DNA of 64,000 bases from Desulfomonilia bacterium. GTDB lineage: Bacteria; Desulfobacterota; Desulfomonilia; UBA1062. Positions within the stretch are counted from its first letter, which is position 1. The number at the start of each line of letters is the position of its first letter. Positions 16,867-34,075 of the stretch are shown here, one piece after another. Under the pieces are notes generated by a model. The model searched no databases. It was not told where the DNA came from and worked only from the letters and a program-made list of their open reading frames with translations. The translations under genes were made by a program, and so were the position numbers. The stretch lies in assembly GCA_963664325.2 (NCBI GenBank), contig CAXXDQ010000004.1:320001-384000 (forward strand). Reading direction: 5' to 3'.

Positions 16867-17649
16867 TTATTTTTTATGGTTTTTATCATGACCGAGCCCC
16901 AGATGCTCCCTGAACGTCTTTTCCAGTTCCTTTGCCGCCTTCATTTCCCGGCCTGCCTTCGGGGGAGGGACAGGTTCAAGAAATTCGGCTTCGAAAACAG
17001 ATTTTTCATACTGCGGGTAATACCACTTGTCTTCTTTGGGCATGAACGGCGGATTGTTTCTGATCAGCACGGGCTGTATCGGCACGCCCGCCACCCTTGC
17101 AACCTTGAAGGCCCCCGACTTGAACCCCAGCAGTTCCCCTTTCGGAGACCGGGTGCCTTCGGGAAAAAGCATGAACCTGCGGCCTGATTTAAGCACATCG
17201 ACTATACTGCTGGTCAACTGTACGGCTGCAGACAAATCATCTTCACCGGATGCAAATATAAAGCCGGCGTGCGCGAATATCCTTCCTAAACCCGGAAGCG
17301 CTTTCAGGGACTGTTTCGCCAGCAATGACAATCCCGGGATGTCGCGAACCAATACAAGCACGTCAAAGAGTCCGGGATGGTTTGCCACAATGACACACGG
17401 ACCGCTGGCCATCGTCCCCTTTATCCTTTCCGCCTTGAAAAGACCGCCTGCATCGAGCAGCTTCAGCCATAAGCTGAAATGAAACCGGTTAATGCGCTGC
17501 ATCAGGTACCTGTCTTTTCCGCCAAGGGCATTATAGACGTTTATGAACGGGATGAAAAAAAGGAAGGCCGACAGCATGCCGATTTCGAATACGGCGAACA
17601 TGAAAAACATATAAACGCCCTTGGCATATCTGACGGCAGGCCTGATCAT
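16867..17649 (-). CDS. Lysophospholipid acyltransferase (PlsC family)
   Basis: VANHPGLFD (HxxxxD) and FPEGTRS motifs. Confidence 0.88.
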   Translation of the reverse strand: MIRPAVRYAKGVYMFFMFAVFEIGMLSAFLFFIPFINVYNALGGKDRYLMQRINRFHFSLWLKLLDAGGLFKAERIKGTMASGPCVIVANHPGLFDVLVLVRDIPGLSLLAKQSLKALPGLGRIFAHAGFIFASGEDDLSAAVQLTSSIVDVLKSGRRFMLFPEGTRSPKGELLGFKSGAFKVARVAGVPIQPVLIRNNPPFMPKEDKWYYPQYEKSVFEAEFLEPVPPPKAGREMKAAKELEKTFREHLGLGHDKNHKK

Positions 17650-19376
17650 TATCTGCCTTCCCGTCTTATCTTGAGCCCGTTAGTATAGGGCATGACTGCA
17701 ACCGCCCATGTGCCAGGCCCCATATGTGTGCCGGAAGTAAGCGAGAGCGGCTGCAATATTATTTCAGAGCCGTTGAATTCTTCTTGTAAAAGCGGTTTTA
17801 TTTCCGCCTCAAGCATTTCCCGGTTGTCTGAATACTCGAGCATTATAATTGCGTCCCTGCCCTTTAAAAGCTCCCGGAGCCTCTTTAAGGCAAACGCTGT
17901 CTGGTCTTTGCGGTTGCGTACTACCCCAAGCTTTTTCACGCCTTCAGGCTGCGGGCTTACAACAGGTTTCATGTTCAGCATATCTGCAAAAAAACCGCTT
18001 GCCTTCGAAACCCTGCCGCCTGCGACAAGGTACTGAAGCTTGTCTATAAAGACATATTCCTCGCATAAAAGGGCGGCCCTGCCGGCAAATTCGATCACAT
18101 CTTCAGGAGATGCCGCTTCGAGTGAATACCGCGCAACCGCCAGCACCATAAGGCCCAGCCTTCCCGATGCTGCGCCCGTATCTATTACGGTAAGCCTGTT
18201 ATCAGGGTCGTGAGCGGCTTTCCATTCGGATGCAACCTGATAATTGCCGGTGAAGGCGGAACCCACGCAAAGGTAGAGAGCTCTACCGTAAAGTCCGAGC
18301 ACTTTCTCATAGTGCTGGTACCTTTCAAAGACCGAGGCCTGGGCCGTTGTGGCCCTTATTCCTTTCCTCATCGACGAGTACAGCAGCGAAGGCTCCAGGC
18401 ATGTTTCGGGCATGTCCAGTCTGCCCAGGGATATGTAGCTGTCAAGCAGTGAAAACCCCAGTCCTGCGGCATCATTTCTCGTGACGCTGCCTGCGGCATC
18501 GGTAACGATATGCAGAGCGGGCTTTAACGAAACACAGAAATTTTTTGTCTGCTCCTTAAGATCATCTTCAGACCACTTTACCACTCTCCCCAGCTTTGAT
18601 ACGGAGCTGCGGACCGACTCCGAAGAATTTGAATGCAGGTGAATCTTGATATAGTCATCTTGCCTTATTGCCACAACGCTCTCATCAAAGCGTCCGATTT
18701 CATCGCTGAGGTTCTGGTTGTCGCCGTTGATCTTCATGACGAAATCGATGCAGCTCCCTGAAATGCCTTCTTCCTTTTTCCAGTCGGCGCTTATGGAAAG
18801 GCGGTCGTTGAAGAGTTCTGCAATATGATTCATCTCGTCGCGGGTGCCATTCAGGGCGTTGAAAAACGCATCAAAAAAAATGAACATGCCCAGGGCGCCG
18901 GAATCGACCACCATGGCCTTTTTAAGCTCCGGATTTATCTCGGTGGTTGCCATCACCGCGTCCTTCAGGTTTTCCAGTATGTTTTTTTTGTCGGCAATTT
19001 TTTCACCGGTTTTGGCCAGCTCTTCAAGAGTTACGAATATATCCAGCATGGTCCCTTTTCTGGGCTCCGGCACTGCGCCAAACGCCCTCTTCCTGCCCAC
19101 ACTTACGGCATGTGCCATGTCCCGGTGCGGATTACTGGACAGGAATCCGGTAAAAAAGCTCGCGGCAATGTTTCCGGAATTCCCCCTGGCCGAAAGCAGA
19201 AGGTCGTTTATAATCGAATCGCTGGGGAGGACCCTCAGGGGAGCAAGGCTCAGAACAAGGTTTCTGCCGGTATCTCCGTCGGCAACCGGAAACACGTTTA
19301 TGCTGTCAAGCAGGTCCGACCATGCAGCAAGCCTTTCGGTACCGGCGGAAAGCGCAGAGAGGAATTCAGATGTCAT
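17649..19376 (-). CDS. DAK2 (FakA-like)-DegV (FakB-like) fusion, putative fatty acid kinase
   Basis: INVFPVADGDTGRNL, ARGNSG, GTMLD, VVDSGALG, KIHLH, then DegV motifs IVTDAA, TTAQAS, DTGAASG, GGRVS, THMGPG; start MTSEF overlaps upstream gene end. Confidence 0.85.
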   Translation of the reverse strand: MTSEFLSALSAGTERLAAWSDLLDSINVFPVADGDTGRNLVLSLAPLRVLPSDSIINDLLLSARGNSGNIAASFFTGFLSSNPHRDMAHAVSVGRKRAFGAVPEPRKGTMLDIFVTLEELAKTGEKIADKKNILENLKDAVMATTEINPELKKAMVVDSGALGMFIFFDAFFNALNGTRDEMNHIAELFNDRLSISADWKKEEGISGSCIDFVMKINGDNQNLSDEIGRFDESVVAIRQDDYIKIHLHSNSSESVRSSVSKLGRVVKWSEDDLKEQTKNFCVSLKPALHIVTDAAGSVTRNDAAGLGFSLLDSYISLGRLDMPETCLEPSLLYSSMRKGIRATTAQASVFERYQHYEKVLGLYGRALYLCVGSAFTGNYQVASEWKAAHDPDNRLTVIDTGAASGRLGLMVLAVARYSLEAASPEDVIEFAGRAALLCEEYVFIDKLQYLVAGGRVSKASGFFADMLNMKPVVSPQPEGVKKLGVVRNRKDQTAFALKRLRELLKGRDAIIMLEYSDNREMLEAEIKPLLQEEFNGSEIILQPLSLTSGTHMGPGTWAVAVMPYTNGLKIRREGR

Positions 19377-19791
19377 TCGGGGTCTCCAATGCGTCACGGA
19401 TATCCTTTGGTATCTCAAGGTCCATCCCCGAACCCGTAAACAGGACAGCGGCCTGCTCGGTCGTTCCTGTGGCGCAGAGCAAGTTGTCCGATATCCTGCG
19501 GATGGCGAAATCCATGATGATTTTTCTTTTGGCCCCCTTCAAATAGGCCGTGCAAATGATTTCATCCCTAACCTTTAAAGGTGCGATGTACTTTACGGAA
19601 ACCCGGATGACAGGGAAAAGGTAGTGGAATCTGCAAAAGTAGTCATAGAGGTCAATGCCCTTTTCAGAAAACAGGGCGTCTCTGGCGATCTCGAAATACT
19701 TCAGGTAATTTCCGTGCCACACGACCTGCATCGCATCAGTGTCATGAAAGGGAATGCTCAGTTTTACCGAATGTTCAAACAAGGAGCCCAT
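19366..19791 (-). CDS. Acyl-CoA/acyl-ACP thioesterase (YbgC/4HBT hotdog family)
   Basis: FHDTDAMQVVWHGNYLKYFEIAR motif. Confidence 0.9.
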   Translation of the reverse strand: MGSLFEHSVKLSIPFHDTDAMQVVWHGNYLKYFEIARDALFSEKGIDLYDYFCRFHYLFPVIRVSVKYIAPLKVRDEIICTAYLKGAKRKIIMDFAIRRISDNLLCATGTTEQAAVLFTGSGMDLEIPKDIRDALETPNDI

Positions 19792-19795
19792 TTTA

Positions 19796-21328
19796 TCAAT
19801 CCCACGTCATTTCATATAAAGCCGAGGCCAGCCTGCCGATGTCCTTTCCCATTTCCCTGTCTGTTGCCGCATCTTGAACGACATCTCGAACCAAGGATAC
19901 GATTTTCTTGATTTCGGGTCTCAATTCAAGCCCTCCCCTTATCTCGCAGGCCTGCACAGCCGCCATAAGATGGACCGCAACCATGCTTGATACCAGCTCG
20001 CACTGCCTCAGCGCATCCCGGGCCGCAATCGTCCCAAGGCTGACCTTGTCCTGGTTGTGCGATTCGGTCGAGCGGGAAAAAGACGCCACGGGCATGGTGT
20101 TTTTGAGCGCCTCGGCGGCCAGGGCCGAGGCCGTTATCTGCATGCCCTTGAATCCATGGTGCTTGATGTACTGATTCCCTTTTACCTTGACAAGGTTAGA
20201 AGGCAGGCCGCGGTTGAAACGCGTATCGACAAGCAGCGCCATCTGGCGGTCGAGGAGGTCGGCCATCTGCGCAAGGGCGCTTTTCAGGCTATCCATTGCA
20301 AAGGCTATGTGGCCTCCATAAAAATTTCCTCCCATTAAAACGGCTCCGGTCTCAGAATCGAACAGGGGGTTGTCATTTGAGCTGTTGATTTCCGTAACCA
20401 CCCATTTTTCCACCCAGCAAACGGCATCTGCGACAACGCCCAGTATCTGAGGTACGCATCTTATCGAATAGGGGTCCTGCAGGTGGTCGTTATGCCCTGA
20501 CTCCCCGGGGTTTCCCCCTGATTCAAGCAGCTTCCTTAATTTTCTCCCTGTCATTATCTGGCCGGGATGCGCTTTGGAATCGGTTATAACTTCGTGGAAG
20601 TGGTCTGCGTGCCCCTTCAACGCATGCACGGTAAGGGCGGTTGCCGCTATTGCGGCTTCAAGTATCTTTTTTGAACGGTACAGCGCCACAGCGGCGATGC
20701 CGGTCATGACCGAGGTCCCGTTCAAGATGCCGAGCGGTTCCTTGGGTTTGAAGGTGTACGGCTTAAGACCTGCCGTAGCGAGGGCCCTGGCAGACTCCAT
20801 GATTTCCCCTTTGTAGACGACCTCCCTCTTTCCGGCCAGGCAGGCCGCCAGATATGAAAGCGGAGTGAGGTCACCGGATGCGCCTACCGAGCCCAGTGAC
20901 GGGATAACAGGGGTAATACCTGCGTTTAAAAAAGCTGCAATCTGACTGAGCAGCTCGACCGTGACACCGGACAGCCCCCTTGAAAGCGAGATTATCCTGC
21001 ACATCATAGCAGCGCGCGTCTCTTTTACACCCAGGGGTTCCCCGGTGCCGCATCCGTGATATGTAATGAGGTTATTGCCAAGGCTTTCAATATCTTCAGG
21101 GCCTATCCTGTTTCCGCATGAGGCGCCGTAACCAGTGGTCACACCATATACAGGGGTTCCCTGAGATATAGCCATGTTAAGGACTTTCCTGCTTGCCTCC
21201 ATTCTTGAAACAAACTCATCAGATTTGCTTATAAAGACCTTTGCCCGTGCATCGGCAATATCGATAAGTCTGACAAGGCTAATGCTTTTATCTCCGATGA
21301 TAACATCCGATTTCTTGTGGGCGTTCAT
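19796..21328 (-). CDS. MIO-dependent aromatic amino acid ammonia-lyase (HAL/PAL/TAL family)
   Basis: VYGVTTGYG, GSVGASGDL (Ala-Ser-Gly MIO), LNGT, QDPYSIRC, DNPL, GGNFYG, HNQD. Confidence 0.93.
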   Translation of the reverse strand: MNAHKKSDVIIGDKSISLVRLIDIADARAKVFISKSDEFVSRMEASRKVLNMAISQGTPVYGVTTGYGASCGNRIGPEDIESLGNNLITYHGCGTGEPLGVKETRAAMMCRIISLSRGLSGVTVELLSQIAAFLNAGITPVIPSLGSVGASGDLTPLSYLAACLAGKREVVYKGEIMESARALATAGLKPYTFKPKEPLGILNGTSVMTGIAAVALYRSKKILEAAIAATALTVHALKGHADHFHEVITDSKAHPGQIMTGRKLRKLLESGGNPGESGHNDHLQDPYSIRCVPQILGVVADAVCWVEKWVVTEINSSNDNPLFDSETGAVLMGGNFYGGHIAFAMDSLKSALAQMADLLDRQMALLVDTRFNRGLPSNLVKVKGNQYIKHHGFKGMQITASALAAEALKNTMPVASFSRSTESHNQDKVSLGTIAARDALRQCELVSSMVAVHLMAAVQACEIRGGLELRPEIKKIVSLVRDVVQDAATDREMGKDIGRLASALYEMTWD

Positions 21329-21360
21329 TTGTTAACTGCTATAAGCATTGCCCCTAATTG

Positions 21361-22786
21361 TCAAGAAACGGGTTTGAAGTGCCGGATCAGGCCTTTCTTG
21401 ACAAACATGTTTTTTATTGATTTCCGGGTGAGCGAGACAAAATCTGTAAATGAATATTCGGGAAACTTGATCAGACCTTCGGTCATGGAAATGGTTTTCC
21501 TGTCCTCTTTGTCCCAGAAGGTGATGCTCCTGGGTTTGTAGACCTCGGGCGCCCTGAGCAGGAAATCAACGTCCAGCAGTTCGCCGGGGCAGCATATATC
21601 GACCTTTAACCCTTGAAGAAAAGGCCTCGCAAAGCTTTTCATAAGACTCCGGGGAGTACTCCTTCTTTTTATTGTGCGTTTCGACCCTCAGCACGATTTT
21701 GCCGCCTTCAACGATCAGATAATAGACAGGGCTGTCAAACTGTTTTGAAAAGTCCATGACGGCATCCTCTGCGTTCAGGAAATAGACCTTTTTCTTATCA
21801 GAGCTTATCACCTCATCGGACCTTCCCAGCACCTCGATAACAGGATTCGGGTTGCCGCAGACGCATGTTTTCTCCGATATACGCGCATAGTCGCCCGTGT
21901 TGTATCTGATCATTGGAGCAGCCTGTCTGTAATATGAAGTTATTACAGCCAGGCCGACATCCCCTTTTTGAACCGGCTTTGCTGTTTTATCATCGAGAAT
22001 TTCAACGATATGCGCACCTTCATGAATATGCAGGTTTCCCTTTTCGCAGGTTGATGCAATTCCCCCGCATTCGGTGCTGCCGTAGACCGTCGACATTTTC
22101 GCATCCCATTTTTCCTCGATGTAATTCCTGAGCGAGTCCGGTACTATCCGGCCGGAAGTCAGGATGTGGCCCACGGTTTTAAAATCCCTCCTGATATCGT
22201 AGTTCATATACTTTGCAACCATTTCAAGGATGATCATTTCAGTGGGAAGGCAGCATATCGCCTCAACCTCGAGCCTTTTTATTATGTCCAGGACCCTGGC
22301 ATAAGGCATATTCCAGCTCAAATAACCTACAGGCAGGACTATTCCGCCGTCCTGCCTGCATTTTTCCTCAATCACAAAGGGAGGGATGGCAAAGCTGTAT
22401 GGAAACCTGTTGAGCACCTTCATCCCGGGTTTTATGCACGAGGTCCAGTCGCGGGTGATCTTGACCTCGTTAAGATAGTCTTCACCCGAATACCATGACG
22501 AGATGGGCGCGCCCGTCGTGCCGAATGATTCATGGTAATGCCAGACCCCTGCTTTATCCATAATGAGATTGTCCGCCGGGCGAATGCTTCTCAGTATTTC
22601 TTTTGAAGTGAGCGGAAGACCGATAAAATCATCCCAGGTTAAAAGTTCTTTGTTTTGAAACGAGGATTTATAAAGCGGCGTTTCTTTCAGCCTGTTGAAC
22701 AATGCTTTGATAACATCAAAATCCGGCAGACTGCTGTTTGAGTCGAGCAAAGACTGAGCCAAAGAATCCATGGGGTCTCCAATCAT
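21361..22786 (-). pseudogene. Phenylacetate-CoA ligase (PaaK)-like adenylating enzyme with an apparent +1 frameshift near 21605-21622 (pseudogene or sequence error)
   Basis: ESFGTTG, VYGSTECG, IRYNTGD, GRSDE in 21566..22786. The C-terminus (LKVDICCPGELLD..YKPR) continues in another frame to 21361. Confidence 0.7.
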
Positions 22787-23245
22787 AGAATTTGACGGTT
22801 CAAAATTGTTAACATAATAGACTCATTGACACAAGCCGATCGTACCGAGACATTACTGTTCAAAACATCTGGCCGCAAAATATCGGCCCGATACAGAGAG
22901 TCATACCTTATATTTTAAAAGTCTTTCAGCTCTCAAAATTCGTCCTGATTGCCATCTGTCAAATCTATTCTGAAACTTTTCCCAGATCGAAATTATTTAG
23001 GCTGTTACCTTTTGCCGCTGGTCTCCTGTTGACAGCCACGAGGGTCAATGTTATCCAAACTGCAGAGAAAAATTTACACCCGCCGGACCACTCATTCTGC
23101 GGATCTTAGGATCGACATGAGAGGGTTCGCGCAAGAGAACATCAACAGCCCTTGCAATGCTTGTGACAGGCACGATATGGGCGAGGAAATGCATCCCTGA
23201 GACGTAAAGAGGCATGATGGGAAAATTTAATCATATGAGGAGAGA

Positions 23246-24359
23246 ATGATGAGGTGTATCGCTGTTATTAACCAAAAAGGCGGATGCGGCAAGACAACAA
23301 CGACGATGAATCTCGGGGCCTGTCTGGGATTGCTGCAGAAAAAAACCCTCATCGTTGATCTGGACCCCCAGGCACATGCCACTCTGGGCCTCGGTCACGC
23401 GAGAGACAACGACGCCCCGAGCGTTTCAGACCTCCTGATGGAGGACCCTCCAGGCGCCACTGCGGTCGCAACCGCCATCGCAAAGCTCCCCTACAGGCTG
23501 CACCTGCTCCCGTCCGATATCAGCCTCAGCATGGCCGAGCCGGTCCTGCTCCAGCGTCAGAACCGCGAAACAGCCCTGGCCACCATACTTGCACCTCTTG
23601 CCGACCAGTACGATTTCATCCTCATCGACTGTCCGCCTAACATCGGAATCCTGACCTTCAATGCGATCTTCGCCTGCACCGAGGCGATCATACCGATCGA
23701 GAGCGGGCTGTTCGCATTGCACGGCCTGGCCAGGCTCCTGGAAACAATAGAAATCGTGAGCCGGCAGCGCAACCGGGAAATCCCGGCATACGCCCTGGCT
23801 ACGATGTTCGACCGCAGGACGAGGATCGCTCACGAATCGCTCAAGGAAATCAGGACCCACATGCAGGAACATGCATTCAAAACGATCATCAACTACACTG
23901 TGAAGCTGAAGGAAGCCGCCGGATACGGGCAGAGCATCATCGACTATGACATACTGAGCTCGGGCTTCAATGACTACATAAGCCTGGCGCGCGAGGTCAT
24001 AGCGCTGCGCAAAACCAGACAGGTCAGCGACCAGTTCGATTCGACACTTCCTTCCAAATTTCCCCATGAGGTCAGGCCGGACAGGGGCGCCCATGACATC
24101 GGCAGCCTCACACCGGTGGTTACAGAGGAAGGGGTCCTGTTCCGTTATTATTCCCAGGAGGCCTCCCGGGTCCACGTGGTGGCCGGTTCCAAGGAATGGA
24201 CCATCGGAGATGCGCCCATGGAGAACGTCGACCATGGTATGGAAGAGGCTCGTGCCGCTTGCCAGGGGGAAATATGAATATAAATTCTATGTCGATGATA
24301 AAAAATTGTTGAACCATATGATGAAATGCTCTGAAAACATACTTCCTATTTATATATAG
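23246..24359 (+). CDS. ParA/Soj family ATPase with a frameshifted, truncated C-terminal CBM48 (AMPK-beta-type glycogen-binding) domain
   Basis: NQKGGCGKTT, DLDPQ, IDCPP (ORF 23246..24277). VLFRY..VHVVAG..W..PME in frame, then VWKRLVPLARGKYEYKFYVDD in the +1 frame to 24359. Confidence 0.8.
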
Positions 24360-24444
24360 CTATATTATTTTACTTAATAACCTTCCTGATTAATAAAACT
24401 AATCAGCATTGACATCTTACAACAGTTTATTTTACACCCGACGG

Positions 24445-25155
24445 ATGCGGTTCTCTTTTGTCATTCCAGTTTATAACCATGCCGGTTCACTGGCCTCCGT
24501 GCTTGACGGGTGCATTAAACTCGGCCTGCCCGTCATCGTCGTGGATGACGGATCCACAGACGGCATATCTGAAGTTTTAAGCCGGTATAGTGATATATCT
24601 GTTGTCAGGCATGAAAAGAACCTGGGCAAAGGAGCGGCAATCCGTTCAGGCCTGAAGGCGGCTTTAGGAATTGCCGATTTTGCCGTGACCCTTGACGCCG
24701 ACGGGCAGCATGCGCCAAGTGATGCCGTTAAACTTATTGAATCGATAAAAGCGGGCGTAAGGCCGATGGTCATAGGAGCGAGAAAAAACATGCAGGGTGA
24801 TGCGGCCGTACCCTGGACCAGCAGGTTCGGCCGTAAGTTTTCCAATTTCTGGGTAAGGCTTTCCGGAGGTCCCGTGCTGACGGACACCCAGAGCGGATTC
24901 CGGATTTATCCGGTGAAAGAAATCCTGGGGCTTAAAAGCAGGGCCAAAAGGTTTCAGTTCGAGGTGGAGATCCTTGTGCTGGCCCACTGGCAAAAAATAC
25001 CTGTCTATGAGGTGCCCGTAAGCGTTGTTTATCCCGAGGCAGGGATGAGGATTTCACATTTCAGGCCTTTTGTCGATTTTCTCAGGAACTCTTTAACCTT
25101 CACCCGTTTGATTGCCATGAGGCTTTTAATACCCCATTCCCTCAGAGGAGCCTGA
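24445..25155 (+). CDS. Glycosyltransferase family 2
   Basis: VIPVYNH, VVDDGSTD, NLGKGAA, TLDADGQH, DTQSGFRIY, SHFRP; ATG 24445 preferred over TTG 24409. Confidence 0.92.
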   Translation: MRFSFVIPVYNHAGSLASVLDGCIKLGLPVIVVDDGSTDGISEVLSRYSDISVVRHEKNLGKGAAIRSGLKAALGIADFAVTLDADGQHAPSDAVKLIESIKAGVRPMVIGARKNMQGDAAVPWTSRFGRKFSNFWVRLSGGPVLTDTQSGFRIYPVKEILGLKSRAKRFQFEVEILVLAHWQKIPVYEVPVSVVYPEAGMRISHFRPFVDFLRNSLTFTRLIAMRLLIPHSLRGA

Positions 25156-25162
25156 GACTGTC

Positions 25163-28100
25163 ATGAAATTCCGAGGATACAGCATCAGCCTGAGGCTTCT
25201 GATTTTCGTCCTTGTCTCTCTTTGCCTGATGACCTTCTGGACTCAGGCCCATTTGAAGTTAAGTTCGGACCTCCTTTCATCGGTGCCGGTTAACGACCCG
25301 GTAATATCAGATGCAAAAAAGATATTTGAACGCTACAGGCTGCCTGACAAGGTGGCTGTAGATCTTTCAATCGACGGTGAGGCTGCGCCGGATAAAGACA
25401 TGCTGGCCTCCTCCGCCGGGTATCTCGAAAACGAGATGAAAAAATGCGGCCTGTTTGAAAAAGTCGGTGTGGATCAGCCGGGAAGTGTATTCGCTCAAAT
25501 CATGGACACGATAACGGATAACCTGCCCGGGAGTTTTTCGGCTGGCGACCTCAATAAACGCGTGTCGCCGCTTCTTGATACCGATAAAATCAGGGGCAGC
25601 CTTAAAGATGACATTGAAATGCTCGGTGGCTTCGAGGGTATCGGGCAGGCGGATATGATTTCAAAAGACCCTCTCGGCTTGAGGTTTATTGTCCTGGAAA
25701 GGCTCAGGAATTTTATGGAGGAAAAAGGTTCATCCGTCTACAAAGGCCATATATTCACCTCTGACGGCAGGCATTGCCTTGTTGTTGCGCACACAAAAAG
25801 TAACGGCATGGACACTGAGGGCGCCAGGCAGATTGCTGATGTCTTCAAAAAAGTGTCCGATGAATTCATATACAAGGCGGTCCGGGATAACGCCAGGCCG
25901 GTAAAGCTTAATGCAATAGGGTCGTACCGTGCAGCCCTCGATAACGAAAAAACGGCAAAAAGAGATGTAATATTTGCGGCAATAGCATCGACAATAGGCA
26001 TTGCACTGCTCCTCATAACGTGCTTTCCAAGGCCCTATATAGGTCTGCTCTCCCTTTTGCCCGGTCTTGTCGGCACAACAGTTGCCATGTTTATGTTATC
26101 CATCATAAGGCCTGAAATGTCGCTCCTGGCGCTGGGATTCGGAGGGGCCATCCTGTCATTCACCGTGGACAGCGGAATATCCTTTTTCCTCTTCCTTGAC
26201 CGGACTTCCGAGACAACTGGAAAAGAGACCTCACACGAGATCTACTCCGTGGAACTCATGGCCATGTTTACAACCGCAGGGGCGTTTCTTGCACTCGTTT
26301 TCAGCGGATTCCGGATCATGGCCGATGTCGGCATGTTCGCTGCGCTTGGTGCGATATTCACATTCATATTCGTTCACACGATGCAGCCGAGAATTTTTAT
26401 AAGCATGCCGCCAGCAAAAAGAAATGCCCTGCTCCCGGTCGAGCGGATTGCAGATTTTCTGAGCCTGAAGCCGGGATGGACCGGGTTTCTTCTTGCCTCC
26501 GTCCTGGGGATTGTCATGGCCCTTGCAGCAAGGCCTGTCTTCAATGCCGATCTGAACAGGATGAACGCGGTCGGCCCGGTTACGCTCAAGGCCGAGGAGA
26601 CGTTTAAACAAATATGGGGAGACGTTTTCAGCAGGATATATTTTCTCTCCGAGGCGGGATCTGTTGAAGAGCTCAGAAATATTTCCGACAGGATGTCGGT
26701 TTTTTTCAGGCGGCAGGCTGAAATGAAAACCCTGGCCTCGTCATTCACGCTGTCCGACCTGTTGCCGTCAACGCATCTTTCGGGACAGAACCTTGAAGCG
26801 TGGAAAGGCTTCTGGAACCAGGGCAGGGTGTCGTCTATTAAATCAACGCTGCTCTCGGCATCAAGAGATTATGGTTTCATGAATAATGCCTTCGTTCCTT
26901 TTATCGGTTCAATCGAACATCCACGGATAAAAAATACTGCAATCTCAGGCAATTCATACGAAATCCTGGGGTTCTTCAATGGCAGCAATGATAAAAAACC
27001 CATACTGATAAGTTCAGCCATGCCCGGAGTTTTTTACAAGGCACAGGCGCTTTTCGATGAGTTCCACAAGAACAGGCTAGGCAGTATGCTTGATTATGGT
27101 CTTTTCACCGAAAGGCTGTCCGGCCTGGTACACGGAATTTTCATGAGGACGCTCATCACTGCAGGAAGTGCTCTTGCCATTTTGCTGCTTTTCTATTACC
27201 TCGACTTCACCCTTGTGTTTCTGACCCTTCTGCCCGTGGTCTTTTCCATAATCTGCACCCTCGGGACTTTTACCCTGATCGGCCATCCTATCGATATACC
27301 CGGACTTATGCTGGCGGTGGTGGTCCTGGGCCTGGGAATTGTATTTTCCATATATATAGTAAGGATGCAGCAGCGGTATATCGATGAAAGCCACCCCTCC
27401 ATGAAGACGATCAGGGCCTCGGTCCTCATGGCCGCAACGGCCATCTTTACGGGGTTTTCAGTTCTGGCGGCTGCCAGGCATCCCCTGTTGTCAAGCGCTG
27501 GACTGTCCGCGACACTGGGCATATTATATACCTATGCGGGAACAAGCCTTCTCCTGCCGCCCCTTCTAAGGTATGTGTTCAGAGAACATCCGTTTCCTCA
27601 AGAAAAACTTGTCTTGCCGGGATCGCCTGCACACCGGAAAATGGTAATGTCGCGCTTTAAACACCTTGAAGTCTATGCCCGCATGTTTGCCAGATTCAAG
27701 ATGAAATTCGACCCCATGTTCCCAAAACTGGCCGGGTTCATAAAAGGCAGGGGTACAGTCCTGGATATAGGCTGCGGGTACGGGGTACAGGGCGTATGGC
27801 TTAAGACCCTTCTCCCGGGTACAAGGATATGCGCCCTTGACCCCGACACTGAACGCATCAGGATTGCCCGAAGGGTCCTTGGCAGGGACGACTGTGCTTT
27901 TGTTTCAACAGCCCAGGCATTCAACTCGTATCCGGAAACCATAGATACGGCACTGATGCTGGACATGATACATTATATCCCTGATGATGAACTAAAAAAG
28001 ATATTGAGTGATATAAGATCAAGGCTTGCAGACAGCGGACGGCTTATATTGCGCGTGACGATTCCGTCTGAGAAAAAAGTCCCTTGGGAGAGATGGCTTG

Positions 28101-28276
28101 AAATAATCAGGAACAGGTTAACCAGAAACACAATCTGGCTCCGTTCGAAAGACGGCATCACTTCTCTGCTTAAAGATACCGGCTACAAACTGGTGTTCTG
28201 TGAAGTAACCGCTCCGGGAAGGGAAGAGACCTGGTTTTTATCCGAGCCTGATGAAGGGCGCAGGGTTCTGTCATGA
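25163..28276 (+). CDS. MMPL/RND-type lipid exporter fused to a C-terminal class I SAM-dependent methyltransferase
   Basis: Two blocks of multiple TM helices separated by large loops, DPLGL motif; C-terminal VLDIGCGYG, ALDPD, LDMIHY. Confidence 0.85.
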   Translation: MKFRGYSISLRLLIFVLVSLCLMTFWTQAHLKLSSDLLSSVPVNDPVISDAKKIFERYRLPDKVAVDLSIDGEAAPDKDMLASSAGYLENEMKKCGLFEKVGVDQPGSVFAQIMDTITDNLPGSFSAGDLNKRVSPLLDTDKIRGSLKDDIEMLGGFEGIGQADMISKDPLGLRFIVLERLRNFMEEKGSSVYKGHIFTSDGRHCLVVAHTKSNGMDTEGARQIADVFKKVSDEFIYKAVRDNARPVKLNAIGSYRAALDNEKTAKRDVIFAAIASTIGIALLLITCFPRPYIGLLSLLPGLVGTTVAMFMLSIIRPEMSLLALGFGGAILSFTVDSGISFFLFLDRTSETTGKETSHEIYSVELMAMFTTAGAFLALVFSGFRIMADVGMFAALGAIFTFIFVHTMQPRIFISMPPAKRNALLPVERIADFLSLKPGWTGFLLASVLGIVMALAARPVFNADLNRMNAVGPVTLKAEETFKQIWGDVFSRIYFLSEAGSVEELRNISDRMSVFFRRQAEMKTLASSFTLSDLLPSTHLSGQNLEAWKGFWNQGRVSSIKSTLLSASRDYGFMNNAFVPFIGSIEHPRIKNTAISGNSYEILGFFNGSNDKKPILISSAMPGVFYKAQALFDEFHKNRLGSMLDYGLFTERLSGLVHGIFMRTLITAGSALAILLLFYYLDFTLVFLTLLPVVFSIICTLGTFTLIGHPIDIPGLMLAVVVLGLGIVFSIYIVRMQQRYIDESHPSMKTIRASVLMAATAIFTGFSVLAAARHPLLSSAGLSATLGILYTYAGTSLLLPPLLRYVFREHPFPQEKLVLPGSPAHRKMVMSRFKHLEVYARMFARFKMKFDPMFPKLAGFIKGRGTVLDIGCGYGVQGVWLKTLLPGTRICALDPDTERIRIARRVLGRDDCAFVSTAQAFNSYPETIDTALMLDMIHYIPDDELKKILSDIRSRLADSGRLILRVTIPSEKKVPWERWLEIIRNRLTRNTIWLRSKDGITSLLKDTGYKLVFCEVTAPGREETWFLSEPDEGRRVLS

Positions 28277-29145
28277 TGATGCTTTTTTATAAAGTCATGC
28301 ATGTCCTTGCGGGCTCCAGGGCCGGGATATGCCTTGCCGAGTTTGCCACCTGGTGCATTACTACATGTTATTTCCTCATGCCCAGGCCGCAGGTGGGATG
28401 GAGCATGGACTTTTACAGCTCCCTCTTTCCCGGCAGGTCAAGGCTTTACTACCTTCTGTGCGCATGGCGGCAGTTTCATCATTTTTCAACCGTGTTTACA
28501 GACAGGCTGATCGTGGAATCCTCGGGAGAAATATCATGCGAGAGCATCGGCTGGGAGCATATATACAATGCACATGCAAGCGGCAGGCATGGTATTCTTC
28601 TCATGTCGCATGTAGGCAACTGGGAGCTTGCAGCGAGGAAGCTAAGTGCTTTCGGGATAAAGGTGGCCCTGTTCGTGGGCTCGAAACAGGCACAGAAGAT
28701 CGAAGCGCAGATGAAAAGGGAAATAGCCGGCAAGGGGATAAAAATCCTGGCCATCGACGAGAACGAGAATGCTGCACTTAATGTCTTTGAAGTGCTTCAT
28801 TACCTCAAGAATGAAGGCTTTGTGTCAATGACAGGGGACCGGGTCTGGAGCGACAAACAGAAATCAATAGAGCTTGAATTTCTTAACCGGTCGGTGAGGC
28901 TGCCGTATTCCCCGTTTGCACTTGCATACGCACTCAGGGTTCCCCTCTTCGTTTTCTTCATAATCAGGACAGGCCGCGCAAAATACCGGATTGAATACAA
29001 CCCGCCGATCAGTCTTGAAACGGAAGACCGCTCTGAAAGGGAAAAGGTTATACATGAGGCGGCTAAAAAATATCTCGGCTTGTATGAAAGCGTAATACGC
29101 AGGCACCCGGATCACTGGTACTGTTTCGAGCCGTTCCTCTTTTAA
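28273..29145 (+). CDS. LpxL/HtrB-like acyltransferase
   Basis: SHVGNWE, MTGDR, HPDHWY motifs. Confidence 0.85.
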   Translation: MMMLFYKVMHVLAGSRAGICLAEFATWCITTCYFLMPRPQVGWSMDFYSSLFPGRSRLYYLLCAWRQFHHFSTVFTDRLIVESSGEISCESIGWEHIYNAHASGRHGILLMSHVGNWELAARKLSAFGIKVALFVGSKQAQKIEAQMKREIAGKGIKILAIDENENAALNVFEVLHYLKNEGFVSMTGDRVWSDKQKSIELEFLNRSVRLPYSPFALAYALRVPLFVFFIIRTGRAKYRIEYNPPISLETEDRSEREKVIHEAAKKYLGLYESVIRRHPDHWYCFEPFLF

Positions 29146-29155
29146 AAGGCGGAAA

Positions 29156-29965
29156 ATGTTAAGCAGCAGCCATCCCAGGATTTTTTATATAGGTATCACT
29201 GCAATGGTTATTGCTATCATGTTATTTCCGATAAGGCCGGTTTATGCACTGCTCCCGCTGTCAGTATTTGTCCTTCTTTCAATAGCGGCTCCGTTTTTTC
29301 CAGGTGCCCAGATGTTTCTTCCTTCTATCATGCGGGGTGTATCAGGTTCACAGGGTGTTGCCCTGACCTTTGACGACGGTCCGGACCCCTTCAGCACCCC
29401 TCTTCTTATCGAACACCTGAAAAGGCACGGCATCCATGCACATTTTTTCATTATCGGTCAAAAAGCTTCAGCACATCCTGAACTTATAAGGCTTATCCTG
29501 GATAACGGCCATACGCTCGGCAACCACACCATGCATCATGATGTGTTCATAATGCTGAAGCCTGCAGCAAGGCTTGATCAGGAAATCACGCTTTGCCAGG
29601 AGCTCATGAAGGGTTTCGGCATAAAGGCATATACATTCAGACCCCCTGCCTCAATTGTTAATCCAAGGCTGGGGCCGGTACTTTCAAGGCTTGGTCTTCT
29701 GTGTGTGATATTCAACAGGCGCGGAAGAGATTTCGGCAACCGCTGCCTGGACAATATAAGCAGGAATGTCATAAATGGCATTAAAGCGGGTGACATTATC
29801 ATGCTTCATGACAGGGCCCCGGCACAGGATGTTCCTGTTTCAAAGCTGATCGGACAGGTGGAAGAAACAGTTACCGGCATCAGGAAAAAGGGCCTTGATT
29901 TTTTACCCCTTGAGAAGCTTATAGGCAGGAAAGTGATGGAGGATTTATGGCAGAAAGAGAAATAG
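29156..29965 (+). CDS. Membrane-anchored polysaccharide deacetylase (CE4/NodB)
   Basis: LTFDDGP, GNHTMHH, FRPP, IIMLHD; N-terminal hydrophobic helices. Confidence 0.9.
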   Translation: MLSSSHPRIFYIGITAMVIAIMLFPIRPVYALLPLSVFVLLSIAAPFFPGAQMFLPSIMRGVSGSQGVALTFDDGPDPFSTPLLIEHLKRHGIHAHFFIIGQKASAHPELIRLILDNGHTLGNHTMHHDVFIMLKPAARLDQEITLCQELMKGFGIKAYTFRPPASIVNPRLGPVLSRLGLLCVIFNRRGRDFGNRCLDNISRNVINGIKAGDIIMLHDRAPAQDVPVSKLIGQVEETVTGIRKKGLDFLPLEKLIGRKVMEDLWQKEK

Positions 29966-30676
29966 CACTGGTTACAGGCGGCAGCCGCGGCATAGGTCGG
30001 GCGATATGTATGGAGCTTGCGGCAAACGGATATTATGTAATCATCAACTACCGCTCACAAAAGGATGCGGCGGCTGAAACGCTCTCAAAGATAAAAGAAG
30101 CGGGCGGCGAAGGCGAAACCGTGCAGTTCGATGTTGCAAACAGCGACGAGACCGCATCTGCATTGAAGGAACTTCTGGATAAGCACAAATATATCAGGGT
30201 GCTTGTAAACAATGCGGGCATAACCAGCGACAGCCTCTTTCCCATGACATCGAGACAGGGCTGGGAAAGCGTTATAGACACCTCTCTCAAGGGCTTTTAC
30301 AACGTCACGAAGCCGGTGCTCAGAAGCATGATCAGGCAGAAGAACGGAAATATAATAGCCATTGCCTCTATCTCGGGTCTTGCAGGAAATGCAGGACAGG
30401 TGAACTATTCCGCAGCCAAGGCGGGCCTGATTGGCGCATGCAAGGCCCTTGCAAAGGAGATGGCCAAGCTCGGCATAAGGGTAAATGCCGTGGCGCCGGG
30501 ACTTATCGAGACCGAAATGATAAAAGACCTGCCCCTGGACGCTCTTGTCCAGTACATTCCGATGGGCCGTGTGGGCAGACCGGAAGAGGTTGCGAAGGCC
30601 GTCATGTTCCTGTGCTCTGAGAATGCATCGTACATTACCGGACAGGTACTGTCGGTCAACGGGGGGCATGGTCTGA
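29947..30676 (+). CDS. fabG: 3-oxoacyl-ACP reductase (appears fused to the LolA-like gene through one extra G in a G6 tract)
   Basis: VTGGSRGIG, VNNAG, NYSAAK, VNAVAPG, YITGQVLSVNGG. Removing one G at 30661-30666 gives ..VNGGMV-TGA ending at 30676. Confidence 0.88.
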
Positions 30677-31287
30677 TGAAGCCTTATTTTAAGGCCCTTG
30701 TCCTTCTTCTTGCCTTCTCTGCGCTTGTCCTGGCGGGCTGGACCCTTAACTGGGAATCAATTGAAAAGAACATGTCCCAGGTAAAGTCCATCTCTGGAAC
30801 ATTCACCCAGAAAAAAAACGTGAAGATCCTCACCAGGCCGCTGATCAGCAAAGGCCGGCTCTATTACCTCTCGCCTGATTCGATAAGGTGGGAATATACC
30901 GAACCCGTTAAAAGCATCCTTCTTGTGCATAAAGGAAATGTGAAACGTTACATCATGAAGGACAATAAGCTGATTGAAGATTCAAGCGCAAGGCTTGAGG
31001 CCGTCAGGATAGTTGTAGGCCAGATTACCGAGTGGTTTGCCGGCAGGTTTAACGGGAACAGGGATTTCAAGGCGGAAATTATTGAAGGAAGAGTGGTGCT
31101 GACCCCTCAGAATACAACCATCCGGAATTTTATTCAGAAGGTTGTAATAACCTTTTCAAAAAACGACGGCGTGATCTCTGCCATTGAGATTGTCGAGGTA
31201 CAGGCGGGTGCGTCGATATACCTGGAATTTGACGATATAGCTATTAACAAACCCGTCCCTGACGGCATCTTCGAGAGAGCCAGATGA
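30676..31287 (+). CDS. LolA-like outer-membrane lipoprotein/lipid carrier
   Basis: MKPYFKALVLLLAFSALVLAG signal peptide, FTQKK, SKGRLYY..IRWEYTEP; ATG overlaps the restored fabG stop (TGATG). Confidence 0.82.
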   Translation: MKPYFKALVLLLAFSALVLAGWTLNWESIEKNMSQVKSISGTFTQKKNVKILTRPLISKGRLYYLSPDSIRWEYTEPVKSILLVHKGNVKRYIMKDNKLIEDSSARLEAVRIVVGQITEWFAGRFNGNRDFKAEIIEGRVVLTPQNTTIRNFIQKVVITFSKNDGVISAIEIVEVQAGASIYLEFDDIAINKPVPDGIFERAR

Positions 31288-31934
31288 GAAGGGCCGTCTG
31301 TTTTTTGCTGCCGCTCTGCTGTCTGCTCTTTCAATGCGCGCATCAGGAAAAACCGGCAGGTTTGACAATAAACCCCGAGATTGAAAAAGAGTGCCTGTCG
31401 GTTTACCCGTCTAAATCCTTCCGGGCGGTCCACAAGATAGAGGCGGACCTTCCTTTCGGCGGGTACGAGACTTTTATCGGTGTGACAGAGGTTCATCCCG
31501 ATACCGGCCTTATCAAGGTGATCCTATTGTCTCCTGAGGGCATAACCCTTCTTGATGCCGAATGCTCGAGCCAGGGAACAACGGTCAATTCTGGTATTCC
31601 ACCGCTTGATAAAAAAGATTTTGCAGAAAAGTTCTCGGATAACATACGTTTTCTTTTCATGCCCCCCAAGGGCCGTCTCGAAGGTTCTTTAACTAATTCA
31701 GACAGCTCATGCCTCTGCATCTGGACAAAAGATAATTTCAGGACGGAAATTAAAAAAGAAAAAGGCCGTGCTGTTTTAAGCGAGATAGAAGGCTCGTCAA
31801 GAATCTCCCGTCAGGTTGTCTTTACGCCGCCTGCAACTGATGGATTGTACTCAAGGATGACACTTCAGACAAAAGGCCTCGGCGGATACAGGCTGAACTT
31901 TGAATTGCTTCAGACCGAAGATACCGGCAACTGA
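31284..31934 (+). CDS. Putative lipoprotein (DUF3261/ApeM-like by context)
   Basis: Signal peptide ending LLFQC; ATGA overlap with the lolA-like gene. Confidence 0.55.
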   Translation: MRRAVCFLLPLCCLLFQCAHQEKPAGLTINPEIEKECLSVYPSKSFRAVHKIEADLPFGGYETFIGVTEVHPDTGLIKVILLSPEGITLLDAECSSQGTTVNSGIPPLDKKDFAEKFSDNIRFLFMPPKGRLEGSLTNSDSSCLCIWTKDNFRTEIKKEKGRAVLSEIEGSSRISRQVVFTPPATDGLYSRMTLQTKGLGGYRLNFELLQTEDTGN

Positions 31935-31958
31935 ACGGTTAGCAACAGTTGCCGGTAT
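31921..31958. terminator. 13-bp perfect inverted repeat between convergent genes
   Basis: ATACCGGCAACTG-N12-CAGTTGCCGGTAT. Confidence 0.55.
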
Positions 31959-31977
31959 TGCGTTTAATACAGAATGA

Positions 31978-32400
31978 TTATTTGACTTTCTTGAGGACCA
32001 TCGGGGTCGGGGCGGTCTGGCCGGTATCGCGGGATTTGTAATAATTGCCATAGAGTTCTTTACCGTTTCTCAGTTCAAACTTGGCAGTATAATCGACCGC
32101 GGCTCCGTTATAGAGGACCAGGTAGACTGTGTTTCCGGACACTATTCCTTTAATGACATAAGTGCTGATATTGCCGGTTACATTATTGCCTTTCTGCAGC
32201 AGTTCGCCCTGTCCCCAGCTCATGAATGAATCTGTTTCATTGAGAGAGTCTTTCCAGGTTCCCGAAATATTCACGGCGGCAGGTGTTCCACCCGCTTTTG
32301 CTGCAAGCCATGAATCAATGTCGGTCTCCTTCAGTGCGCTGGCGCAGGACATGATAAAGAATACCGGGACGATAAATAGAATTAACATGAGTTTTTTCAT
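31978..32400 (-). CDS. Small lipoprotein of unknown function
   Basis: MKKLMLILFIVPVFFIMSC lipobox-like signal, AAAGGAG RBS. Confidence 0.7.
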   Translation of the reverse strand: MKKLMLILFIVPVFFIMSCASALKETDIDSWLAAKAGGTPAAVNISGTWKDSLNETDSFMSWGQGELLQKGNNVTGNISTYVIKGIVSGNTVYLVLYNGAAVDYTAKFELRNGKELYGNYYKSRDTGQTAPTPMVLKKVK

Positions 32401-32459
32401 AATCGGGTCTCCTTTCTTTATCGTTTATTTTTAATAATAATGCAGCTGAAAAAATATAA

Positions 32460-33047
32460 TCAAGCTGTTTTTTTCCGTGACAAGAACTCAATGATATTTT
32501 TCTTATGGCCGGCAAAAATTAAAATAACTGTAGCAGCCGTTGCAGCCGCGGAGATGGGGTTAAACTGAAAATTAAACGACAAGCCGATTCCCATCAGGGC
32601 TATGACAATAAAAGACGGCATGAACGTAATCCTGACAAGCTTGTATATCAGAGGCCAGAGAAAGGTCGCCAGGAGTCCCCAGACGGGTAAGATGAATATG
32701 GCAAAACCCATATAACTGGCCACGCCCTTGCCGCCTTTAAAGCCGTGGAAGCACGGATAGCGGTTCCCAAGCACAAGGAAAAATCCGGCAAATGCAACAT
32801 CCTGCACGGGCAGAAGTTTAAGCGATAACAATGAAACCAGACCTGCACGGCCTATATCAAGTACAAGCACCAGGGCGGCCCAGAAAGGTCCCGCTATTCT
32901 GTATACATTGGTTGTCCCGGGATTCCCTGAAAATTTTTTTCTCGGGTCATCCAGTCCAAGCAGCCTGAAGGTGATCATGGAAAAATTTATTGAACCGATA
33001 ATGTAGGAGCAAAGAAGAATTAGAACAGCTACAAGAGTCGTATTCAC
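32460..33047 (-). CDS. plsY: Acyl-phosphate:glycerol-3-phosphate acyltransferase
   Basis: SYIIGSINF, SGNPGTTNVYR, FKGGKGVA, HKKNI; multi-TM, 195 aa. Confidence 0.88.
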   Translation of the reverse strand: MNTTLVAVLILLCSYIIGSINFSMITFRLLGLDDPRKKFSGNPGTTNVYRIAGPFWAALVLVLDIGRAGLVSLLSLKLLPVQDVAFAGFFLVLGNRYPCFHGFKGGKGVASYMGFAIFILPVWGLLATFLWPLIYKLVRITFMPSFIVIALMGIGLSFNFQFNPISAAATAATVILIFAGHKKNIIEFLSRKKTA

Positions 33048-33448
33048 GGGTTGTATACTTGGATGGCTGTCGTTCCGTATATTGTATCACCAGTAAAAAC
33101 GCGGCCTTCGAACACGCCGTAATTATCCATATCAAGAGTCCTCCTGCATGAAATATAAACAGGGATTCCCACCGGCAGATGAGCCGTCCCGATCTCGGCA
33201 CTGCGTATCCCGACAAGAAACCCGGCCCCTCCCAATTTTTTCTTATCGCGCCTGCACCAGCCGACATAAGCGCTTGTAGTCTGTGCAACGAGTTCAATAA
33301 TCACCATCGGATCAATCCCTTCCTGCCTCTGGAAAGGCCATGTTTCTGTTGGTACGGCTATGGCCTTGCAGCTGTTTTCATCCGATTCGAGAATATCCTG
33401 AATCAGTTTCATTCCGTCCCTGTGGGGCATGTAGGATTCAATATCCAT
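33044..33448 (-). CDS. Hotdog-fold 3-hydroxyacyl-ACP dehydratase (ApeP-like)
   Basis: MPHRDGMKLI, IELVAQT, GFLVGIR. Confidence 0.82.
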   Translation of the reverse strand: MDIESYMPHRDGMKLIQDILESDENSCKAIAVPTETWPFQRQEGIDPMVIIELVAQTTSAYVGWCRRDKKKLGGAGFLVGIRSAEIGTAHLPVGIPVYISCRRTLDMDNYGVFEGRVFTGDTIYGTTAIQVYNP

Positions 33449-33453: not shown

Positions 33454-33825
33454 TTATTTTGAATCATTAACTGGCCTGTCCGTTTCAATAAAACCGGAGC
33501 ATATAAGGTTTTCATCCCCTGATATGTCAAATGAGACGACTTTTGAACCTCCCTCGTTTCTCCATGCAATTTTTATATTCAGGAATGCATTGTCATGAAC
33601 AATCTGCCGGAAGCGGGTACGCCTCAGGCCTGTTATCCTTATATCCGGAATTGCTTTTCTTAAAAGCTCCTGAACCATACACAGCATGGAAACACCGGGC
33701 AGGACGGGCTCCCCGGGGAAATGTCCATTAAACCATAAAGATCCGGCCGGAATATTGAATTGTCCGGTAATACAGTCTTTGTTCAAGTTGTAACCGAGCA
33801 GTGTATGCCAGGTGACTTCCGCCAT
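33454..33825 (-). CDS. FabZ/ApeI-like dehydratase
   Basis: WFNGHFPGEPVLPGV motif; ATG 33825 just after the ACP stop. Confidence 0.82.
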   Translation of the reverse strand: MAEVTWHTLLGYNLNKDCITGQFNIPAGSLWFNGHFPGEPVLPGVSMLCMVQELLRKAIPDIRITGLRRTRFRQIVHDNAFLNIKIAWRNEGGSKVVSFDISGDENLICSGFIETDRPVNDSK

Positions 33826-33829
33826 ATAA

Positions 33830-34075
33830 TCAGCTTGGGATTTTTTTATAGATAAATTCAACAACATCCCTGACGGTACGGATATGTTTGAGTTCTTCTC
33901 CTTCAATTTCCATATCGAGCCTTGCTTCAAGCATTCCTATCATATCAAGCGCATCGATGCTGTCCAGACCCAGGTCATCTTTGAGGAGAGCTTCCATTGT
34001 TATATTATCCTCCGGAACCTCAAACTGGCTGATGAAATATTCTTTGATGATATCAAAGATTTCCTTTTTTTCCAT
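33830..34075 (-). CDS. Acyl carrier protein
   Basis: DDLGLDSIDALDM motif, acidic, IRTVRDVV. Confidence 0.92.
   Translation of the reverse strand: MEKKEIFDIIKEYFISQFEVPEDNITMEALLKDDLGLDSIDALDMIGMLEARLDMEIEGEELKHIRTVRDVVEFIYKKIPS

Follow-up and report, generated by a model that had tools for sequence, protein, structure and literature searches.

The locus described here raises the question of why a bacterial cluster for aryl-polyene-type lipids should carry its own genes for a fatty acid kinase and for PlsY, an acyltransferase that acts on acyl-phosphate and glycerol-3-phosphate (G3P). It lies in a stretch of 64,000 nucleotides, called the window below (positions 320001-384000 of contig CAXXDQ010000004.1, here C4, assembly GCA_963664325.2), from a Bacteriovoracaceae genome of 4.3 Mb in 9 contigs that is 95.6% complete (G000). 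To judge from its sequence, the part of the window between about 8.5 and 38.5 kb is an aryl-polyene-type (ape-like) type II polyketide synthase/lipid cluster. One of its genes joins Dak2, FakA middle and DegV domains in one chain (the kinase fusion), and another encodes a paralog of PlsY. The cluster appears to have recruited both, the first as a fatty acid kinase in a single chain and the second as a PlsY of its own, beside an ApeK-like thioesterase gene and an ApeD-like gene for a PlsC-type acyltransferase. Gene identities, conserved catalytic residues, linkage across phyla and the background of the lineage point, with a probability of roughly 60%, to a route from free acid through acyl-phosphate and lysophosphatidic acid (lyso-PA) to an anchor of the phosphatidic acid (PA) type, without PlsX; from these observations we infer all of the enzymatic steps and which acid is used. 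What is new here, as the data suggest, is an ape-type cluster that would enter glycerolipid synthesis by an acyl-phosphate of its own.

The kinase fusion matches Dak2 (PF02734, 4.9e-13), FakA-like_M (PF21645, 1.9e-8) and DegV (5.1e-37), and the DegV match, in the last 290 amino acids (aa), covers positions 2-279 of the 280 in the profile. Its homologues are 572-574 aa long, which makes the ATG at 19376 a likelier start for the 575-aa fusion than the TTG at 19418. Residues 1-295 align to FakA, with the DGDTG, ARGNSG and VVDSG motifs and, in the middle domain, the Cys/HxH triad kept, and the Dak2 motifs also align to the structures 7W7H and 8VIP. Among 60 family members, D33, D35, T36, G37, G65, N66, S67 and G68 are invariant, as are G453, G454, R455, H551, G553, P554 and G555. 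The same holds for the Cys-His-His triad (C209, H246, H248), which aligns to the Cys and HxH of 7W7H and whose role is described in the available passages of PMC10848957 and PMC9136124. These residues remain near-invariant in a wider set of 121 members. In the DegV part, the arginine of GGR and the histidine of HxGPGT, the latter a predicted carboxyl-binding residue, have their counterparts in the GGRI and HxGPGT motifs of the fatty-acid-binding DegV proteins 1PZX and 2DT8. Together with an excerpt of PMC9136124, these alignments suggest that the arginine is the equivalent of FakB1 Arg173.

Structural comparison agrees with this domain assignment. An AlphaFold2 model of the fusion, made with the family alignment as input, has a mean pLDDT of 88.8 and a pTM of 0.90. 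In Foldseek searches its C-terminal domain matches fatty-acid-loaded DegV/FakB structures with TMt 0.80-0.87 over about 280-290 columns and its N-terminal domain matches FakA_N with TMt 0.74; against full-length FakA the alignment is only loose (TM 0.3). In canonical FakA, a separate FakB docks onto a C-terminal domain whose DegV-like fold is reduced (PMC10848957, excerpt). The possibility that the C-terminal part of the fusion is such a reduced FakA_C domain is ruled out by the full DegV profile and the matches to full-length FakB structures. A profile search of the window genome found no second DegV gene, and hence no separate FakB, and the simplest reading of the fusion would be a kinase in which a single chain also binds the acid. 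The family is large, with 3,537 proteins at E <= 0.001 among the 8,000 candidates scored, and the best 120 relatives are each about 570-610 aa long and all have the same three Pfam domains.

The fusion shares with the Firmicutes FakA/FakB pair (S. aureus; S. suis, 7W7H) the Dak2/DhaL-type ATP domain with DGDTG and ARGNSG, the Cys-His-His middle domain, and the DegV fold with the GGR arginine and HxGPGT histidine. It differs in being one polypeptide, with a full fatty-acid-binding DegV domain in place of FakA_C and no free FakB. Furthermore, while FakA/FakB is a scavenging system, the fusion sits in a Gram-negative secondary-lipid cluster. A natural FakA-DegV fusion was not met in the passages and listings of the fatty acid kinase literature that were covered.

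Whether the plsY of the window serves housekeeping was judged from profile searches of its own genome and of 41 Bacteriovoracia genomes (the window's included; 35 of high quality), with the same PlsX and PlsY searches finding both proteins in control genomes. The window genome yields a single PF02660 match, the window plsY itself, no PlsX, and one match each for DegV and Dak2, both in the same open reading frame (ORF); the separate housekeeping plsX or plsY that the original prediction had suggested looking for was thus not found there. PlsX was found in none of the 41 genomes, including the 35 of high quality, and PlsY occurs in five, namely all four of the window's genus and one 2.3-kb contig of another (G018). 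A PlsB-type GPAT_C domain, in contrast, is present in 40/41, and PlsB models match the copy of the window genome over about 550 residues. In a lineage with PlsB and without PlsX, G3P is taken to be acylated by PlsB. The argument that a sole plsY must be a housekeeping gene is thereby ruled out, since PlsB is present in the lineage whereas PlsX and PlsY are generally missing; the case shows that a sole copy in a genome need not mean housekeeping. The window plsY is, on this distribution, best read as an accessory gene that came with the cluster. Both the fusion and the full-length fused ketosynthase-chain length factor (KS-CLF) gene are likewise confined to the genus (4/41 each), the fusion being absent from the other 37 genomes. 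With no PlsX in the genome, no source of acyl-phosphate is known for the window PlsY other than the kinase fusion.

Two details of this background deserve mention. The plsB of the window genome (C8:158232-159627) is split inside GPAT_C into frames of 669 and 180 codons, against 816 codons in its congeners, through either an assembly indel or a real lesion; if the break is real, the strain would have no intact G3P acyltransferase besides the cluster PlsY. The only PlsY outside the genus (G018:C336, L012) is high-scoring and very long-branched, and on its 2.3-kb contig it is possibly binning contamination.

The window PlsY scores 116 bits against PF02660 (cut-off 24.1) and 104.4 bits against TIGR00023, below the cut-off of 137.2. 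In a tree of 49 PlsY proteins, a branch with 100/100 support separates 9 cluster-linked sequences and 32 database homologues, the latter being all those sampled, from 8 housekeeping PlsYs. Residues were mapped onto the structure of Aquifex aeolicus PlsY (PDB 5XJ5 family), with roles taken from the available part of PMC5700162. Ser35, Arg45, Lys104 and Asn180 of the G3P phosphate clamp, together with His177, are kept in the window protein and in 40-41 of the 41 clade members. The window protein also shares with the Aquifex enzyme its seven-transmembrane PF02660 fold, the GGKG loop and Thr41. It differs, apart from the TIGR00023 score, at the His92 of the phosphate hole, which is Asn in the window protein and in 41/41 members of the paralog clade and His in 8/8 housekeeping PlsYs. 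According to the same source, His92 is one of just two side chains that bind acyl-phosphate, and Asn occupies position 92 in 0.5% of 7,288 PlsY homologues (PMC5700162, Table 2).

The gene arrangement around the kinase fusion recurs far beyond the window. In the three congeners (G001-G003, about 80% identity), both the ammonia-lyase (TAL)-thioesterase-fusion-PlsC-like-KS order and the dehydratase-dehydratase-PlsY-lipoprotein order are kept. A scan of genome contigs with the fusion returned 13 loci, two from congeners and 11 others at 40-51% identity, assigned to Desulfocapsa, Desulfobacteraceae, Deltaproteobacteria, Proteobacteria or just "bacterium", and in 11/11 of the latter the fusion lies among homologues of cluster genes. 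Among 301 evenly drawn Desulfobacterota genomes, 32 have some match to the fusion. In 27 it is long and at least 41% identical, and in the other five only separate FakA-like or DegV-like genes are matched, and weakly (22-32% identity). Up to 20 kb was fetched around 26 of the 27 loci (the 27th, L038, was already in the contig-scan set) and around two split FakA/FakB controls, and all 26 fusions, but neither control, lie in the cluster. Every one of the 37 fusion loci of other taxa holds at least two other cluster families (range 2-13; 0/2 for the controls), with the lowest counts on contigs of 2.8-4 kb; gene calls at these foreign loci rest on tblastn with the window proteins. This linkage is far above chance. 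The fusion is a signature gene of a patchy (27/301), phylum-crossing cluster subfamily, in which two B12-radical SAM genes and the KS-CLF fusion are its conserved partners across phyla.

The original prediction was to fail if this plsY is the sole housekeeping copy and the genes are not linked to the cluster elsewhere. The plsY is indeed the sole copy but not a housekeeping one, and the linkage extends to 37/37 loci. It had also proposed to check whether the fusion and plsY co-occur with the cluster ketosynthase. A KS-CLF of full length occurs in 14 of the sampled genomes, and 13 of these carry the fusion; for plsY, co-occurrence holds in part. The paralog (E <= 1e-25, 41-49% identity) was found in 17 of the 301 Desulfobacterota, all within the 27 with the fusion, leaving 10 fusion genomes in which it was not found. 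It was found in 0/274 genomes without the fusion, although these genomes are mostly metagenome-assembled and completeness is not given for G041-G342, so that absences there are weak. Several paralogs share a contig with the fusion, at a distance of 9-19 kb, and a PlsY homologue 40-45% identical to that of the window lies inside the fetched stretch in 5/26 loci. Of these five genomes, two (G331, G335) have a high-scoring housekeeping PlsY elsewhere in addition to the paralog, and three (G314, G115, G150) have a low-scoring PlsY only. G314, with PlsB, no PlsX and the paralog as its only PlsY, repeats the pattern of the window independently. In G115 the paralog and the B12-radical SAM gene downstream share one 632-codon open frame (G115:C50:14447-16240; L086/L109), which may be a PlsY-radical SAM fusion.

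In the window itself the genes of the proposed route are tightly packed, as the original prediction had described. The stop of the thioesterase gene and the kinase ATG at 19376 overlap by 11 nt, and a TAATG is common to the kinase stop and the start of the PlsC-like gene. In the second operon a GTGA is common to the dehydratase stop and the plsY start, and an acyl carrier protein (ACP; PF00550 match 33851-34051) heads the operon. At the 37 other loci, the gene directly upstream of the fusion encodes an ApeK-like thioesterase in 15 and an AMP-ligase in 10, and the gene directly downstream encodes a PlsC-like protein in 5.

How much of this is foreign to known ape clusters was judged by tblastn of the window proteins against the annotated cluster of E. 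coli CFT073. The ape core consists of apeO/R, apeC, apeE/F, apeI/P, apeQ and apeM (10.1101/2020.12.19.423268, Figure 1 legend). Its set of KS, CLF, ACP, dehydratase, ketoreductase (KR) and transporter is present in the window, with MMPL seen by Pfam only; for ApeM, tblastn at 1e-3 gave no match in the window. Shared with the ape clusters of CFT073 and Xenorhabdus (ApeA-R) are homologues of ApeR, ApeO/C, ApeQ, ApeP, ApeI, ApeH, ApeJ, ApeK and ApeD (27-48% identity), LolA and MMPL domains, and two ACPs. The window differs by its fused KS-CLF, KR-LolA and MMPL-methyltransferase proteins, and adds the kinase fusion, PlsY, two B12-radical SAM enzymes, TAL, an LpxL-like acyltransferase and a deacetylase; the annotation of the CFT073 cluster shows neither a kinase nor PlsY, and neither radical SAM enzymes nor TAL. 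The original prediction had placed all four route genes outside the canonical set. This stands for the kinase fusion and PlsY and falls for the other two: the thioesterase and the PlsC-like protein, as homologues of ApeK (37%) and ApeD (31%), are canonical ape parts, so that just the kinase fusion and PlsY are additions to the acyl route.

The published chemistry narrows the claim in a similar way. The Xenorhabdus product is a glycerol-phosphate-GalNAc lipid, a polyene anchored on a glycerophospholipid, with a plain myristoyl or palmitoyl chain on one glycerol position, and ApeD is proposed to put the conjugated acyl chain, taken from ACP, on sn-2 of a lysophospholipid (10.1101/2020.12.19.423268). 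Of the dedicated acyl-phosphate channel that bypasses PlsX in the original prediction, what survives is the absence of PlsX from the genome and the linkage of kinase and PlsY to the cluster across phyla; its thioesterase and PlsC-like steps are not distinctive, and aryl polyene lipids were already known as glycerophospholipids. Full-text searches found no paper that joins aryl polyenes to DegV or fatty acid kinase, nor one that joins them to cobalamin radical SAM enzymes.

In the route that we propose, the thioesterase would free the acyl chain from ACP, or the acid would be drawn from the free pool. The DegV domain would hold the acid, and the Dak2 domain of the same polypeptide would phosphorylate it to acyl-phosphate. 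The Asn92-type PlsY would then move the chain to sn-1 of G3P, and the ApeD-like enzyme would acylate sn-2. The resulting PA-type anchor would be decorated by the family 2 glycosyltransferase (GT2), the LpxL-like acyltransferase and the deacetylase, and exported via the MMPL and LolA-like proteins. Thioesterase and kinase together would amount to the single step of PlsX at the cost of one ATP, and could serve where PlsX would refuse the chain or the carrier protein. Within the window's genus the route would need no PlsX, and none is encoded. The order of acyl-phosphate, lyso-PA and PA is that of the PlsX/PlsY/PlsC pathway. Unlike that pathway, the route would lack PlsX, with acyl-phosphate predicted to come from free acid by ATP-dependent phosphorylation, and would run parallel to a PlsB-type housekeeping route.

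Several observations weigh against this route. The kinase and plsY sub-clusters are adjacent only in the window genome; in two congeners (G002, C4; G003, C34) about 90-100 kb of the same contig separates them. Ten of the 27 fusion-bearing Desulfobacterota lack the paralog, and 5/5 other cluster-bearing genomes have PlsX and a single ordinary PlsY (176-190 bits, on other contigs), which indicates that the kinase does not require the paralog. In G150, for which completeness is not given, PlsX accompanies the paralog as the only PlsY found, and the paralog might do housekeeping work there. The exchange H92N lowers the activity of Aquifex PlsY to about 7% (PMC5700162, Table 2, excerpt), and ApeK showed no in vitro hydrolysis of ACP-bound aryl polyene intermediates and was proposed to have a proofreading role (PMC8253772, available passages). 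Related genomes are, moreover, non-independent samples. Finally, a single additional G in a run of Gs (GGG, against GG in G002 and G003) breaks the first AMP-ligase gene of the window, as either an assembly indel or a real frameshift; unless it is an assembly error, the cluster may be impaired in the window genome.

Part of this evidence would also fit a kinase-PlsY pair that builds the anchor from ordinary cellular or scavenged C14-C18 acids. The thioesterase would then just proofread ACP loading, and the polyene chains would come directly from ACP via the ApeD-like and GT2/acyltransferase steps, as in Xenorhabdus. We consider this unlikely, though it merits attention: the published lipid carries a plain myristoyl or palmitoyl chain beside an ApeD chain from ACP (10.1101/2020.12.19.423268), the DegV domain superposes on FakBs that bind C14-C18 acids (TMt 0.80-0.87), and the thioesterase is directly upstream of the fusion in just 15/37 loci. 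However, a PlsB-type lineage already makes ordinary 1-acyl-G3P, so that a second, ATP-consuming route seems redundant; the clade-wide His92 to Asn change falls in the acyl-phosphate site, and the thioesterase stop overlaps the kinase start. It is improbable that the fusion is instead a loading device, by which free acid is converted to acyl-phosphate and then, by reversed PlsX, to acyl-ACP for extension by the ketosynthases of the cluster, with PlsY incidental. A Fak-PlsX route to acyl-ACP is known in Firmicutes (PMC12594616; PMC9083066; excerpts), PlsX is present in 5/5 of the other cluster-bearing genomes tested, and an AMP-ligase lies directly upstream of the fusion in 10/37 loci. Yet the fusion is kept where PlsX was not found (the window genome, its three congeners and G314), so reversed PlsX cannot apply there, and the PlsY paralog is confined to fusion-bearing genomes. 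Bacteriovoracaceae are predators, and the genes might serve such a bacterium in lipid scavenging at large and only happen to be neighbours of a pigment cluster. This is very improbable: Fak systems do take up exogenous fatty acids in Gram-positive bacteria (PMC10848957, excerpt), but the same linkage occurs in 37/37 loci of non-predatory lineages, the fusion is missing from 37/41 sampled class relatives, and the genes overlap their cluster neighbours.

The PlsX-independent route from free acid to a PA-type anchor may be read more broadly, although here our confidence falls somewhat short of even. There may be a widespread ape-like subfamily with a private, PlsX-independent entry of the Kennedy type, in which a single-chain kinase phosphorylates a conjugated or aryl-polyenoic acid made by the cluster, and a PlsY with Asn92, specialised for that donor, transfers it to sn-1 of G3P. 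The kinase would possibly stand near the ancestral FakA, with a C-terminal DegV domain that still binds acid. If true, a fatty acid kinase would for the first time be placed in specialised lipid biosynthesis, and for the first time in Gram-negative lineages, extending the biology of these kinases past fatty acid scavenging in Firmicutes. Aryl polyene clusters have been ranked with the most widespread biosynthetic clusters of bacteria (10.1101/2020.12.19.423268). The membrane anchoring of their chains is only partly known, and a cluster kinase with its PlsY would give a defined anchoring route. The fusion would also offer a natural one-chain Fak for mechanistic work on FakA-FakB cooperation, and, as PlsY belongs to a family of antibiotic targets, the fixed donor-site change of its clade is relevant to how substrates are selected there.

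The remaining features of the cluster are collected in the table. One minus-strand operon (22.8-15.2 kb) reads, with overlapping junctions, AMP-ligase, TAL, 4HBT thioesterase, Dak2-FakA_M-DegV fusion, PlsC-like acyltransferase, KS and a 126-aa membrane protein. A second (34.1-32.0 kb) reads ACP, ApeI-like dehydratase, ApeP-like dehydratase, plsY and a 140-aa lipoprotein. A ParA-like gene and a plus-strand block lie between them. The ammonia-lyase is the likely supplier of an aryl starter acid. The PlsC-like protein has an HX4D motif (HPGLFD) at residue 91 and an FPEGTRS block, scores 82.7 against TIGR00530 (cut-off 102.95), and is one of 8 PF01553 genes in the window genome. A 93-aa ORF (21361-21642) considered as a further ACP was rejected, as it has no PP-binding match and is the out-of-frame tail of the AMP-ligase.

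Table. Positions of the cluster genes in the window, the evidence for each and the matching regions of the E. coli CFT073 ape cluster (amino acid identity).
Feature	Position	Strand	Evidence or remark	CFT073 match
Putative single-chain fatty acid kinase: Dak2 (FakA_N), FakA middle Zn domain, full DegV (FakB-like)	17649..19376 (open to TTG at 19418)	-	Pfam, NCBIfam, structure alignments, AlphaFold2, Foldseek	
PlsY paralog (acyl-phosphate:glycerol-3-phosphate acyltransferase family), His92 to Asn	32460..33047	-	PF02660, 116 bits (1.6e-33)	
4HBT hot-dog thioesterase, ApeK homologue	19366..19791	-	PF13279, 2.3e-10	ApeK region, 37%
PlsC-like lysophospholipid acyltransferase, ApeD homologue	16867..17649	-	PF01553, 4e-23	ApeD region, 31%
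ApeP-like dehydratase	33044..33448	-	Profile match and CFT073 comparison	ApeP, 27%
ApeI/FabA-like dehydratase	33454..33830	-	Start uncertain (long ORF to 33930, into the ACP gene)	ApeI, 29%
Acyl carrier protein, first gene of the dehydratase-plsY operon	33830..34087	-	PF00550 match	
Predicted lipoprotein, 140 aa, downstream of plsY	31978..32400	-	No family match; kept beside plsY in the genus	
Aromatic amino acid ammonia-lyase (TAL/PAL type)	19796..21328	-	PF00221, 2.6e-157	
AMP-ligase, two frames in the window genome	21361..22786	-	One 486-codon frame in G001-G003	
Ketosynthase, ApeR-like	15613..16845	-		ApeR, 45%
Small membrane protein, 126 aa	15230..15610	-	Conserved cluster member; beside plsY in some other clusters	
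B12-radical SAM, KS-CLF fusion, second B12-radical SAM, second AMP-ligase (ApeH-like)	8884..15013	+		KS-CLF: ApeO, 33%, and ApeC, 32%, weak (E 7e-5); second AMP-ligase: ApeH, 29%
GT2 (ApeJ-like), MMPL-methyltransferase fusion, LpxL-like acyltransferase, polysaccharide deacetylase, KR-LolA fusion (ApeQ/ApeL-like), 216-aa lipoprotein	24409..31934	+		GT2: ApeJ, 37%; KR: ApeQ, 48%
ParA-like gene between the kinase and plsY sub-clusters	23246-24277			

Beyond these genes, the plus-strand flank of the plsY operon (34219-38464) encodes an FMN-reductase-SCP2 fusion, a DUF3604 protein and an APH-type phosphotransferase, and the first and last of these are kept beside the operon in 3/3 congeners. Upstream of the cluster, two paralogous 1,100-aa proteins with PKD repeats are encoded at 1324-8124 (+). 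A gene of the linalool dehydratase/isomerase family (PF18566) at 40346-42268 (+) is present as a single copy in the window, and G003 has three tandem copies beside the cluster (L025 8424-14217).

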